Below are positions 1 to 3,525 of a stretch of DNA of 3,525 bases, in pieces. Source of the stretch: Escherichia phage MS2. The notes beneath the pieces were generated by a model. That model was not told the origin of the DNA, did not search any database, and saw nothing but the letters and a program-made list of their open reading frames with translations. Location: sequence record JQ966307.1. One strand, given 5' to 3'. Made by a program: the position numbers and the translations under genes. Every line of letters begins with the position of its first letter. Positions within the stretch are counted from its first letter, which is position 1.

Positions 1-131
1 GGGTGGGACCCCTTTCGGGGTCCTGCTCAACTTCCTGTCGAGCTAATGCCATTTTTTTAATGTCTTTAGCGAGACGCTACCATGGCTATCGCTGTAGGTA
101 GCCGGAATTCCATTCCTAGGAGGTTTGACTC
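1..131 (+). other. 5' untranslated leader of an ssRNA phage genome, including the 5' terminal hairpin (about 5..23, GGGACCCC-UUUC-GGGGUCC) starting with GGG
   Basis: Seen in sequence: the window opens GGGTGGGACCCCTTTCGGGGTCC, an 8-bp G/C-rich stem around a UUUC loop. Established knowledge: this is the characteristic 5' end of MS2-group genomes, whose minus strand then ends in the CCCA-complement used by replicase. The leader runs up to the first gene start at 132. Confidence 0.85.
118..123 (+). promoter_or_regulatory. Shine-Dalgarno sequence (AGGAGG) of the maturation gene, 8 nt upstream of the AUG at 132
   Basis: Seen in sequence: AGGAGG at 118..123, then an 8-nt spacer and ATG at 132. Established knowledge: in MS2 this SD is sequestered by long-range pairing with an upstream complementary sequence in the leader. 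A CUUCCU stretch around 30..36 is a plausible partner, but that pairing is inference. Confidence 0.75.
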
Positions 132-1313
132 ATGCGAGCTTTTAGTGTCCTTGATCAGGAGTCCGAGACCTTCGTCCCTAGCGTCCGCGTTTATGCGGAC
201 GGGCAGGTCGAAGATAACTCGTTTTCCCTAAAATACCGCTCGAACTGGACTCCCGGTCGATTTAATTCGACCGGGTCTAGAACGGAACAGTGGCACTATC
301 CGTCCCCTTATTCTAGGGGTGCGCTCAGTGTCACATCGGTAGATCAAGGTGCCTACAAGCGCTCTGGGTCATCGTGGGGTCGCCCGTACGAGGAGAAAGC
401 CGGTTTTGGCTTCTCACTCGACGCACGTTCCTGCTATAGCCTCTTCCCTGTTAGTCAGAATCTGACTTACATCGAAGTGCCGCAGAACGTTGCGAACCGG
501 GCGTCGACCGAAGTCCTGCAGAAGGTCACTCAAGGAAATTTCAACCTTGGTGTGGCCCTAGCAGAGGCCAGGTCGACAGCCTCACAACTCGCGACGCAAA
601 CCATTGCGCTCGTGAAGGCGTACACTGCCGCTCGTCGCGGCAATTGGCGCCAGACGCTCCGCTATCTTGCCCTAAACGAAGATCGGAAGTTCCGATCGAA
701 ACACGTGGCAGGCAGGTGGTTGGAGTTGCAGTTCGGCTGGCTACCGCTCATGAGCGATATCCAGGGCGCATATGAGATGCTTACGAAGGTTCACCTTCAA
801 GAGTTTCTTCCTATGAGGGCCGTACGGCAAGTGGGCACTAACATTAAGTTAGATGGCCGTTTGTCGTATCCAGCTGCAAACTACCAGACTACGTGCAACA
901 TATCACGACGAATCGTGATATGGTTTTACATAAACGATGCACGTTTGGCCTGGTTGTCGTCTCTAGGTATCTTGAACCCACTAGGTATAGTGTGGGAAAA
1001 GGTGCCTTTCTCATTCGTTGTCGACTGGCTCCTTCCTGTTGGGAACATGCTCGAGGGCCTCACAGCCCCCGTAGGATGCTCCTACATGTCTGGAACAGTT
1101 ACTGACGTAATAACGGGTGAGTCCATCATAAGCGTCGACGCTCCCTATGGGTGGACGGTGGATAGACAGGGCACTGCTAAGGCCCAAGTCTCAGCCATGC
1201 ATCGAGGGGTGCAATCCGTATGGCCAACAACTGGCGTATACGTGAAGTCACCTTTCTCGATGGTCCATACCTTAGACGCGTTGGCATTAATCAGGCAACG
1301 GCTCTTAAGATAG
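132..1313 (+). CDS. mat: Maturation (A / assembly) protein, 393 aa; pilus-binding minor virion protein of ssRNA coliphages
   Basis: Seen in sequence: 393-codon ORF, ATG at 132, TAG at 1311..1313, preceded by a strong SD. The translation (MRAFSVLDQESETFVPSVRVYADG...HTLDALALIRQRLLR) matches the MS2 A protein as I recall it in length and along most of its length, with differences mainly near the N-terminus. First gene in the canonical levivirus order. Confidence 0.95.
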   Translation: MRAFSVLDQESETFVPSVRVYADGQVEDNSFSLKYRSNWTPGRFNSTGSRTEQWHYPSPYSRGALSVTSVDQGAYKRSGSSWGRPYEEKAGFGFSLDARSCYSLFPVSQNLTYIEVPQNVANRASTEVLQKVTQGNFNLGVALAEARSTASQLATQTIALVKAYTAARRGNWRQTLRYLALNEDRKFRSKHVAGRWLELQFGWLPLMSDIQGAYEMLTKVHLQEFLPMRAVRQVGTNIKLDGRLSYPAANYQTTCNISRRIVIWFYINDARLAWLSSLGILNPLGIVWEKVPFSFVVDWLLPVGNMLEGLTAPVGCSYMSGTVTDVITGESIISVDAPYGWTVDRQGTAKAQVSAMHRGVQSVWPTTGVYVKSPFSMVHTLDALALIRQRLLR

Positions 1314-1324
1314 AGCCCTCAACC

Positions 1325-1328
1325 GGAG
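1325..1328 (+). promoter_or_regulatory. Coat gene ribosome-binding site (GGAG) 8 nt upstream of the coat AUG
   Basis: Seen in sequence: GGAG at 1325..1328 and ATG at 1337 within AACCGGAGTTCGAAGCATGGCTTCT. Established knowledge: in MS2 the coat initiation region forms a hairpin that sets coat translation efficiency. Confidence 0.7.
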
Positions 1329-1336
1329 TTCGAAGC

Positions 1337-1729
1337 ATGGCTTCTAACTTTACTCAGTTCGTTCTCGTCGACAATGGCGGAACTGGCGACGTGACTGTCG
1401 CTCCAAGCAACTTCGCTAACGGGGTCGCTGAATGGATTAGCTCTAACTCACGTTCTCAGGCTTACAAAGTAACCTGTAGCGTTCGTCAGAGCTCTGCGCA
1501 GAACCGCAAGTACACCATTAAGGTTGAGGTACCAAAAGTGGCTACCCAAACCGTCGGTGGTGTACAGCTTCCTGTAGCCGCATGGCGTTCGTACTTGAAT
1601 ATGGAATTAACTATTCCTATTTTCGCAACGAACGACGATTGCGCGCTTATTGTTAAGGCGATGCAAGGTCTCCTAAAAGATGGAAACCCGATCCCCTCAG
1701 CAATCGCAGCAAACTCCGGAATCTACTAA
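1337..1729 (+). CDS. cp: Major coat (capsid) protein, 130 codons (129-aa mature protein after Met removal); also the translational repressor of the replicase gene
   Basis: Seen in sequence: ATG at 1337, TAA at 1727..1729 immediately followed by an in-frame TAG at 1730..1732 (tandem stops). The translation MASNFTQFVLVDNGGTGDVTVAPSNFANGVAEWISSNSRSQAYKVTCSVRQSSAQNRKYTIKV... matches MS2 coat as I recall it at all but about 3 positions. The supplied ORF (1220..1729) begins at an upstream in-frame ATG, but the genuine start is the internal ATG at 1337 with its own RBS. Confidence 0.97.
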   Translation: MASNFTQFVLVDNGGTGDVTVAPSNFANGVAEWISSNSRSQAYKVTCSVRQSSAQNRKYTIKVEVPKVATQTVGGVQLPVAAWRSYLNMELTIPIFATNDDCALIVKAMQGLLKDGNPIPSAIAANSGIY

Positions 1730-1907
1730 TAGATTCCGTCCATTCCAACATGAGGATTACCCATGTCGAAGACAACAAAGAAGTTCAACTCTTTATGTAT
1801 TGATCTTCCTCGCGATCTTTCTCTCGAAATTTACCAATCAATTGCTTCTGTCGCTACTGGAAGCGGTGATCCGCACAGTAGAGACTTTACAGCAATTGCT
1901 TACCTAA
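1680..1907 (+). CDS. L: Lysis protein L, 75 aa, single-gene lysis protein with a C-terminal transmembrane domain; +1 frame, overlapping the coat 3' end and the replicase 5' end
   Basis: Seen in sequence: ATG at 1680, TAA at 1905..1907, 75 codons, in a different frame from both coat and replicase. The translation METRSPQQSQQTPESTNRFRPFQHEDYPCRRQQRSSTLYVLIFLAIFLSKFTNQLLLSLLEAVIRTVETLQQLLT has a hydrophobic C-terminal half and an LS dipeptide in a Leu-rich stretch. Established knowledge: this matches the position, size and sequence of MS2 L, whose translation is coupled to coat termination. Confidence 0.9.
   Translation: METRSPQQSQQTPESTNRFRPFQHEDYPCRRQQRSSTLYVLIFLAIFLSKFTNQLLLSLLEAVIRTVETLQQLLT
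1748..1766 (+). promoter_or_regulatory. Coat-protein translational operator hairpin (TR) enclosing the replicase start codon; also the capsid packaging signal
   Basis: Seen in sequence: ACATGAGGATTACCCATGT at 1748..1766. It folds as a 5-bp lower stem (ACAUG/CAUGU), a bulged A at 1753, a 2-bp upper stem (GG/CC) and an AUUA loop at 1756..1759, with the replicase AUG at 1763..1765 in the 3' arm. Established knowledge: this is identical to the wild-type MS2 operator as I recall it. Confidence 0.93.
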
Positions 1908-3400
1908 GAGACGAATTGCTAACTAAGCATCCGTCCTTAGGAAATGGTAATGACGAGGCGACCCGCCGGGCTCTAGCTATCGCTAAGCTCCGGGAGGCGA
2001 ATGAGCGGTGCGGCCAGATTAATAGGGAAGGTTTCTTACACGATAAATCCTTATCGTGGGATCCGGATGTTTTACAAACCAGCATCCGTAGCCTTATTGG
2101 CAACCTTCTCTCTGGCTACCGCTCGTCGTTGTTTGGGCAATGCACGTTCTCCAACGGTGCCTCAATGGGGCACAAGTTGCAGGATGCAGCGCCTTACAAG
2201 AAGTTCGCTGAACAAGCAACCGTTACCCCCCGCGCTCTGAGAGCGGCACTACTGGTCCGAGACCAGTGTGTGCCGTGGATCAGACACGCGGTCCGCTACA
2301 ACGAGTCATATGAATTTAGGCTCGTCGTAGGGAACGGAGTGTTTACAGTTCCGAAGAATAATAAAATAGATCGGGCTGCCTGCAAGGAGCCTGATGCGAA
2401 CATGTACCTTCAGAAAGGAGTTGGCGATTTTATACGCCGTCGTCTCCGCTCTATCGGTATCGACCTGAATGATCAAACGATCAATCAGCGTCTTGCAAAA
2501 CTTGGCAGCATCGATGGTTCTTTAGCGACGATTGATTTATCGTCTGCTTCTGATTCCATATCGGACCGCCTCGTTTGGGAATTCCTCCCATCGCAAATGT
2601 ACGCGTACCTGTCGAAAATTCGTTCGTCACGAGGAATCGTTGACGGACGTGTAGTCGACTGGCACCTATTTTCCACAATGGGTAATGGTTTTACCTTTGA
2701 GCTAGAGTCCATGATATTTTGGGCAATAGTCAAGGCAACTATGATCCATTTTGGTAACCTTGGAACAATTGGCATCTATGGGGACGATATCATATGTCCC
2801 ACAGAGATTGCACCTCGTGTGCTAGAGGCTCTCAGCTTCTACGGTTTTAAACCGAATCAGTCGAAGACGTTCATCACGGGTCGCTTTCGCGAGTCCTGTG
2901 GTGCACATTACTTCGGCGGTGCTGATTGCAAACCGATTTATATCAAGAAACCCGTTAACAACCTCTTCGCCGTCTGTCTGTTACTCAACAGGCTACGCGG
3001 GTGGGGTGTTGTGAACGGAGTGTCAGATCCTCGCCTCTTCGAGACTTGGAAATGGCTATCCGAACGTGTTCCTTCGATACTTTTCGGTGGGTCTAACCTT
3101 GATGCAGACTACTACGTGGTTAGTCGTCAGGAAGCTAAAAAGCGTTACGAGAGTCACCCATCTTATGGGCGCACCCTCTCTCACTTTCATAGCACTCCTC
3201 ATCGGCTTTACCGCGTGCCCGTATCTAAACGTGAATTTTCTCCACGTGAAGAATCCGGTCGCCTCATCACTTGGTACCATAATGGTGGTCAAGTTATTGA
3301 CACCACTACGACCCCAAGGGTTCGCCTTGTGCGAACGTCGGAATGGCTAACAGTGGTGCCACTCTTCCCTCAGGAAGATGGCAACTGCGAGCTCTCCTAG
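1763..3400 (+). CDS. rep: RNA-dependent RNA polymerase (replicase beta subunit), 545 aa
   Basis: Seen in sequence: 545-codon ORF, ATG at 1763 inside the operator hairpin, TAG at 3398..3400. RdRp motif A (IDLSSASDSISD, about 2531..2566) and the catalytic motif C YGDD (2777..2788) are present, with STMGNGFTFELES between them (motif B-like). The N-terminus MSKTTKKFNSLCIDLPRDLSLEIYQSIASVATGSGDPHS matches the MS2 replicase as I recall it. The C-terminal roughly 100 aa look more diverged. Confidence 0.97.
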   Translation: MSKTTKKFNSLCIDLPRDLSLEIYQSIASVATGSGDPHSRDFTAIAYLRDELLTKHPSLGNGNDEATRRALAIAKLREANERCGQINREGFLHDKSLSWDPDVLQTSIRSLIGNLLSGYRSSLFGQCTFSNGASMGHKLQDAAPYKKFAEQATVTPRALRAALLVRDQCVPWIRHAVRYNESYEFRLVVGNGVFTVPKNNKIDRAACKEPDANMYLQKGVGDFIRRRLRSIGIDLNDQTINQRLAKLGSIDGSLATIDLSSASDSISDRLVWEFLPSQMYAYLSKIRSSRGIVDGRVVDWHLFSTMGNGFTFELESMIFWAIVKATMIHFGNLGTIGIYGDDIICPTEIAPRVLEALSFYGFKPNQSKTFITGRFRESCGAHYFGGADCKPIYIKKPVNNLFAVCLLLNRLRGWGVVNGVSDPRLFETWKWLSERVPSILFGGSNLDADYYVVSRQEAKKRYESHPSYGRTLSHFHSTPHRLYRVPVSKREFSPREESGRLITWYHNGGQVIDTTTTPRVRLVRTSEWLTVVPLFPQEDGNCELS

Positions 3401-3525
3401 TCAGCACGGCTAGGGACCCCCGTAATCGGGGTGGGTGCCGCGAAAGCGGCTATTCATCGTAACAACGATGGATAGGAGTAATCTCCTAATTTGGTGACTA
3501 ACTTTGCTTGGCTAGTCACCACCCA
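3401..3525 (+). other. 3' untranslated region (125 nt) with a series of stem-loops, ending in a 3' terminal hairpin and single-stranded CCCA
   Basis: Seen in sequence, successive hairpins: about 3417..3433 (CCCCG-UAAU-CGGGG core); 3437..3450 (GCCGC-GAAA-GCGGC, a GNRA tetraloop); 3455..3470 (CAUCGU-AACA-ACGAUG); 3473..3488 (UAGGAG-UAAU-CUCCUA); and the terminal hairpin 3493..3520 (GGUGACUA ... UAGUCACC, 8 bp) with a UGCUU-containing loop, followed by ACCCA. Established knowledge: MS2-group genomes end ...CACCACCCA with a terminal hairpin whose UGCUU loop forms a long-distance pseudoknot with the replicase coding region. Confidence 0.8.

Follow-up and report, generated by a model that had tools for sequence, protein, structure and literature searches.

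The coat protein gene of this MS2-type phage genome ends in two adjacent in-frame stop codons, UAA followed by UAG, and the question raised by this locus is why the second of them is present. A first-pass annotation had regarded the double stop as part of the arrangement that couples translation of the lysis (L) gene to termination on the coat gene. The whole stretch of DNA analyzed (record JQ966307.1, 3,525 nt; termed the window) was shown by an open reading frame (ORF) listing and by homology to be a complete genome of an MS2-group levivirus with the four MS2 genes, located as follows.

132-1313: maturation gene (ORF listing)
1337..1729, plus strand: coat protein gene, 130 codons plus TAA (ORF listing; protein homology)
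1680..1907, plus strand: L gene, 75 codons, in the +1 frame relative to the coat gene (ORF listing; homologous annotated coding sequences in DL54, DL16 and MS2)
1763-3400: replicase gene (ORF listing)

The coat protein of the window is 100% identical to those of DL54 and J20 and 97.7% identical to that of MS2, with Pfam family PF01819 being on record for its homologues. At the nucleotide level, the window exhibited 96.8% identity to DL54 (over 128-3525), 94.3% identity to DL16 (over 1-3123) and 88.5% identity to the MS2 reference, and these identities place it in the MS2 lineage of Emesvirus zinderi.

Direct reading of the end of the coat gene (ATC TAC TAA TAG ATT) confirmed the presence of the two stops, both of which are in the coat frame, and a third in-frame stop was located a short distance downstream.

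1727..1729, plus strand: first coat stop, UAA (direct reading), within the CUAA tetraloop of the coat terminator (CT) hairpin according to the fold
1730..1732, plus strand: second in-frame stop, UAG (direct reading), forming bases 1 to 3 of the 3' arm of the CT hairpin
1751..1753, plus strand: third in-frame stop, UGA, in the operator hairpin, 8 codons after the UAA

L begins at 1680, 47 nt before the first T of the TAA, so that the coat and L genes overlap by 50 nt, while 30 nt (1733-1762) separate the TAG from the replicase ATG at 1763, with the operator lying within this spacer. These distances and the assignment of the genes to those of MS2 had been given correctly by the first-pass annotation, and both the overlap and the spacer match those of MS2. 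The six bases of the doublet are also read in other ways. U1730 is the +4 base of the UAA termination signal, and in the L frame the bases of the UAG are shared by codons AAU and AGA (Asn17 and Arg18).

The UAA-UAG sequence is the original "tandem stop," described in phage R17 by Nichols in 1970 and, as cited in PMC1088959, read as a fail-safe and not as a coupling device. The doublet has thus been known since 1970 and is ordinary for the MS2 lineage. Relative to the UAAUAG terminator of R17, MS2 and f2 (Emesvirus zinderi), the window has the same hexamer, the same last coat codons (..GGN AUC UAY), the same distances to the L and replicase starts and the same third stop, the operator UGA. A difference was found in the nine bases following the UAG, which are AUUCCGUCC in the window and ACGCCGGCC in MS2; the substitutions compensate one another, so that the hairpin is retained.

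The distribution of the doublet was examined among natural genomes of the MS2 lineage, in lab-evolved MS2 records and in more-distant relatives. The natural set consisted of 15 genomes: the window, DL54, DL16, MS2, DL1, J20, R17, M12, FrHenna, FrSaffron, FrBlood, a German isolate and three contigs (one each from IMG/VR, a metagenome and Logan). All 15 contained the doublet, and in the window the hexamer and its spacing are identical to those of MS2. The third stop was likewise kept in all of the MS2-lineage genomes and in fr. For the lab-evolved MS2 records, 209 of 289 were exact matches over MS2 positions 1696-1756; five of the imperfect clones (roughly 75 further imperfect records lay outside this sample) had kept the doublet and differed elsewhere. 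Coat-protein scans of IMG/VR and a metagenome collection gave 3 loci, and the outgroups were obtained from a protein search together with nine contigs. The doublet was absent from fr, which has TAA GAA in two independent records, from GA and BZ13, which have TAA TGG (i.e., UAAUG), and from eight of nine metagenomic lineages with coat identities of 50 to 79%. The exception was L028, a Logan contig (SRR16936384) with a coat protein about 62 to 67% identical, which has an independent TAA TGA at 988-993 with no hairpin around it; the coat-replicase spacer of this contig is much longer. An adjacent second stop was therefore present in 1 of about 10 outgroup coat lineages, a small sample, against 4% expected by chance, and no enrichment of adjacent second stops was detected among these outgroup coat genes. 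A T directly after the stop was found in 7 of the about 10 outgroup lineages.

The expected frequency of a second stop was estimated from the window itself. Given its base composition, the probability that a codon drawn at random is a stop is 0.044, and stops make up 0.037 of all triplets in the window. A doublet terminates only one of the four genes (coat), and there is a chance of about 15% that at least one of four genes would have one. With a rate of about 4% per stop and four genes, one doublet in one genome is not beyond chance. Conservation was similarly uninformative. TAATAG was invariant in 14 of 14 aligned MS2-lineage genomes, as were 33.6% of all 6-nt segments over positions 1-3100, and 79% of the alignment columns were invariant among these 14 genomes. 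As divergence within the lineage amounts to only 2 to 12% over the first 3,100 nt and a third of all hexamers are invariant, the invariance of this hexamer is no evidence of selection, and conservation as a proof of selection on the doublet was rejected because the MS2 clade is too shallow. For the same reason, conservation cannot prove either structure-driven or fail-safe selection on the UAG. Nowhere nearby is variation greater than in the codon directly after the TAG (ACG, ATT, ATG, ATA or ATC), while TAATAG never varies, a pattern in the aligned sequences that is suggestive and serves as a hint rather than a test. Nor can the conservation of the six bases be credited to a single role, as three overlap here: coat termination, L codons 16 to 18 and the tip of a coat-binding hairpin.

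This hairpin was detected by folding of positions 1640-1770, which gave three hairpins (lysis, CT and operator; z = -4.3). Together with the two strands of the Min Jou long-range interaction, whose role is described in PMC11979748, the RNA elements of the region are as follows.

1640..1711, plus strand: lysis hairpin (LH), with the L start codon and ribosome-binding region inside it (fold)
1717..1738, plus strand: CT hairpin, also named TR-1, CGGAAUCUA / CUAA / UAGAUUCCG, 9 bp, -11.4 kcal/mol (fold)
1430..1437, plus strand: Min Jou 5' strand, inside the coat gene (duplex prediction)
1738..1745, plus strand: Min Jou 3' strand, directly after the CT hairpin, nearly invariant in the alignment
1748..1766, plus strand: translational operator (TR) hairpin, with the replicase ATG at 1763 inside it (fold; Rfam RF02359)

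The CT hairpin had a z of -6.1 relative to shuffled sequences. In the fold, the UAA is located wholly within the CUAA tetraloop, and the UAG pairs with A1725, U1724 and C1723 of the Ile and Tyr codons. Across isolates, the pair formed by alignment columns 81 and 96 is AU, CG or GC, and two other pairs vary with a G-U wobble. In the alignment, 92% of cells were paired, compared to 22 to 41% when the partner was slid by 1 to 3 columns, and no shuffle reached the observed score. Compensatory support for this hairpin in the aligned sequences is modest, with a full double change at only one pair. The structure at 1717-1738 is the known coat terminator hairpin (the names CT and TR-1 are used in PMC11979748 and PMC12377776), and its position beside the operator makes it very probably the TR-1 of the packaging literature, those papers being without coordinates. 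The window resembles the CT/TR-1 of MS2 in position, in the CUAA loop, in the UCUA/UAGA apical stem and in the adjacency to the Min Jou 3' strand and the operator, and differs in having a stem of 9 uninterrupted bp where MS2 has 10 bp with an A.C mismatch. In Rfam, the operator family was the sole match (RF02359 at 1731-1766; 59.6 bits, E = 9e-13), and no family covers the CT hairpin.

Functions have been reported for the counterpart in MS2. In the MS2 virion, 15 stem-loops contact coat dimers, and the homologous one, at nt 1720-1731, is among them (PMC9023274); the CT hairpin, which is just upstream of the Min Jou interaction, is reported to affect replicase translation (van Himbergen 1993, as cited in PMC11979748). 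Both coat-dimer binding and replicase modulation, known for MS2, are candidate roles for the hairpin in this genome by analogy. The Min Jou duplex is predicted to be intact in the window (1430-1437 with 1738-1745; 8 bp, -10.4 kcal/mol). At 1739, the window, L001 and L002 have a G-to-U change by which the tenth CT pair (C-G in MS2) is lost and an A1436-U1739 pair is gained in the Min Jou duplex.

A hairpin around the coat stop was plausible in fr, in the OGVH/L024 clade, in L033/L038 and in L035, and was absent in L027, L028, L029, L036 and GA. The hairpin of fr is weaker than that of the window, with a register shifted by one base, and none surrounds the stop of GA and BZ13. Because such a hairpin is absent in several relatives, and about 11% of the 35-nt segments of this highly structured genome fold equally well, we do not claim it to be universal. 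In the clade formed by L011 and L024-L026 (coat 75 to 79% identical), the terminator hairpin is formed in another register (GGCAUC / UACU / GAUGCC), one member ends its coat gene with UGA and another with UAA, and the spacer to the operator is about 60 nt.

The explanation that we favor on balance is that the UAA is the working stop and that the UAG is a lineage-specific, redundant back-up which owes its presence largely to the CT stem and to a preference for U at the +4 position and has no specific role in L coupling. The UAA at 1727-1729, with its +4 U and its location in the loop of CT/TR-1, would stop essentially all coat ribosomes, and the UAG at 1730-1732 would almost never be read. We infer the reason for its retention from the structure and from the context of the stop: the UAG would be both the complement of the fixed coat codons (..UC-UAC) in the other CT arm and the source of the favored +4 U, and any fail-safe effect would be a minor bonus at most, with no specific part in L coupling. 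The coat codons leave no freedom in the 5' arm, and opposite its UCUA the other strand must read UAGA; when such a stem closes on a CUAA tetraloop, a UAG necessarily follows the UAA. A genome-wide survey of bacteria found a preference for +4T and no selection for additional stops (PMC6764699).

In silico substitutions indicated how far each base is held by the stem. Any change of G1732 costs the hairpin 6.4 kcal/mol, with the resulting UAA still being a stop and UAC and UAU not. The change A1731G, giving UGG, costs 0.3 kcal/mol because the pair is kept as U.G, and U1730C, giving CAG, removes the second stop, is silent in L and costs about 0.9 kcal/mol. Given this low cost, the U is not forced by the stem alone. 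These predicted energies suggest that the stem may explain the G well and the A partly, while the U may be better explained by the +4 preference. Two comparisons limit the structural account. Structure is possible without a doublet, as fr and the OGVH/L024 clade have terminator hairpins in other registers and no second stop, and, against the account, the doublet of L028 (TAA TGA) occurs without any hairpin. More tentatively, and with more doubt than confidence, the founding example of a "fail-safe tandem stop" could be a by-product of RNA structure, the UAG having been kept as the top of CT/TR-1 and the complement of the invariant Ile-Tyr codons, in a hairpin that would serve replicase control and coat-dimer binding.

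The alternative that survives best, though we consider it unlikely, is the one proposed originally for R17 (Nichols 1970, as cited in PMC1088959), namely, that the second stop was selected to keep rare read-through from extending the coat protein or from carrying ribosomes into the Min Jou strand and the operator, where replicase control would be disturbed. The crowded layout fits this proposal, with the replicase start just 30 nt downstream and the CT hairpin, the Min Jou strand and the operator packed into the interval, as does the invariance of the doublet in all MS2-lineage genomes and the sampled lab-evolved clones. That invariance, however, is not significant within the MS2 clade, and adjacent second stops in related coat lineages (1 of about 10) are near the 4% chance rate. 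Phage fr manages without the doublet, eubacteria show no genome-wide selection for additional stops (PMC6764699), and a ribosome terminating at the UAA would already cover the downstream elements.

Rather less likely still is a historical accident, in which a single event in the ancestor of the MS2 lineage produced the UAG, which has since been inherited with no selection of its own. A chance rate of 4% per stop, a clade that differs by 2 to 12% with a third of its hexamers invariant, and outgroups lacking the doublet are all compatible with such an origin. The constraint on G1732 and, to a lesser extent, on A1731 imposed by a hairpin with covariation elsewhere in its stem argues against it, as does the constancy of TAATAG next to a highly variable codon.

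The reading from which this analysis started, that the doublet as such is a functional component of coat-L coupling (e.g., by making certain that all ribosomes terminate close enough to reach the L start), appears very improbable. L starts within the coat ORF, at a codon closed in a conserved hairpin, as observed in the ORF listing, the fold and the consensus fold; the latter had compensatory pairs at columns 21-54 (GC/AU), 15-60 and 18-57, and the structure is named LH in PMC11979748. Because its start is closed in this hairpin, L is not translated on its own. In MS2, L is activated by termination on the coat gene (Berkhout et al. 1987 and Schmidt et al. 1987, as cited in PMC12548453, PMC5007439 and PMC6071253), so the coupling arrangement includes the site at which coat translation ends. 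The first-pass annotation had described L translation in MS2 as depending on ribosomes that terminate on the coat gene and then reinitiate upstream. The dependence on termination is supported by this literature; strict reinitiation is not, as a 2025 review takes the data at the wild-type MS2 distance (-50 nt) to agree with initiation by another ribosome while the terminating one holds the hairpin open (PMC12548453). Scanning by ribosomes from the stop to the nearest start was demonstrated in fr (-38 nt) and dominates in MS2 constructs only at a shorter stop-start distance (PMC12548453); the scanning model of reinitiation in fr is that of Adhin and van Duin 1990. By homology, L in this genome would be coupled as it is in MS2: termination 50 nt past the L start would prevent refolding of the lysis hairpin and/or allow a few ribosomes to reach the L start, and the outcome, as in the literature, would be a low level of L synthesis.

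The preservation in the window of the doublet, the 50-nt overlap and the lysis hairpin agrees with a coupling function for the doublet, as does the reported dependence of MS2 L on termination at the end of the coat gene, but comparison with close relatives indicated that the position of the stop is what matters. Phage fr has a similar gene overlap, equivalent lysis and operator hairpins and an L gene dependent on coat termination, and differs in having a single UAA followed by GAA, with an L start (UUG) 12 nt downstream and an overlap of 38 nt. In GA and BZ13, the stop and the L start themselves overlap (UAAUG), the next stop comes only at +3 codons, and L of GA is strictly dependent on ribosomes that have finished with the coat gene (PMC9955659). 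As fr and GA couple L with single stops, coupling depends on the position of the stop and not on its doubling. The efficiency of the first stop points in the same direction. UAA is the least leaky bacterial stop (PMC6764699), so the share of ribosomes that would ever meet a second stop 3 nt later is negligible, and a third follows 8 codons later anyway. No requirement for a double stop in L activation was found in this comparison with fr and GA/BZ13, and the double stop is probably not needed to switch on the lysis gene. The inclusion of the doubling in the coupling arrangement has thus found no support.

Programmed read-through or a frameshift signal at the stop was rejected because UAA, UAG and UGA all occur within 9 codons and no long open frame follows. 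Phage Qbeta also has a levivirus coat-gene stop whose efficiency matters, for read-through to A1 (PMC6071253), but with the opposite logic, a single leaky UGA being followed by a 600-nt open frame whereas the window has the strongest stop and two more within 8 codons.

Few RNA elements in virology have been studied as thoroughly as the lysis hairpin, the CT hairpin, the Min Jou interaction and the operator. Earlier work covers the doublet, the hairpin and the coupling alike, and nothing in the window is new. The window agreed with the MS2-lineage terminator and its CT hairpin in all features compared, apart from small departures, namely, compensated substitutions low in the stem and the change at 1739. 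What the analysis provides is a correction: annotations of the L coupling mechanism should leave out the doubling, since a single stop suffices for coupling in close relatives.

A number of minor differences from other MS2 strains were noted. In the lysis hairpin, the pair between window positions 1660 and 1693 (columns 21 and 54) is G-C here and A-U in MS2. A lab-adaptive mutation of MS2, U1691C, is said to speed lysis (PMC11979748); it creates the C that is natural in the window, where it is compensated by a G on the other strand. The L start codon also varies among close relatives, being GUG at 1678-1680 in the German isolate (L012; LT898437) and UUG at 1691-1693, 12 nt further downstream, in fr (L004).

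At the 3' end of the genome, positions 3120-3525 (the replicase C terminus and the 3' untranslated region [UTR]) exhibited only 89% identity to DL54 and about 71% to other MS2 strains, with a 3' UTR shortened by about 50 nt. A divergent replicase C terminus and a short 3' UTR fit the JS-type natural recombinants DL52 and DL54 (PMC3499819).

At the other end, a run of T residues in the 5' UTR (52-58) has 7 T in the window and 5 T in DL16, MS2, R17, M12, J20 and the other isolates compared. The extra residues are either a real insertion or a homopolymer sequencing error, and because of them all downstream coordinates of the window are shifted by +2 relative to MS2. Just upstream of this run, fr and DL1 have a separate one-base insertion of an A. 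The maturation gene starts with ATG (132-134), as in most natural isolates, and with GTG in the MS2 reference and fr. Upstream, the coat frame stays open as far as an ATG at 1220 within the maturation gene; the resulting ORF (1220-1729) has 169 amino acids, and a public protein cluster, P0001 (169 amino acids; ENA), is exactly such an over-extended coat gene call.
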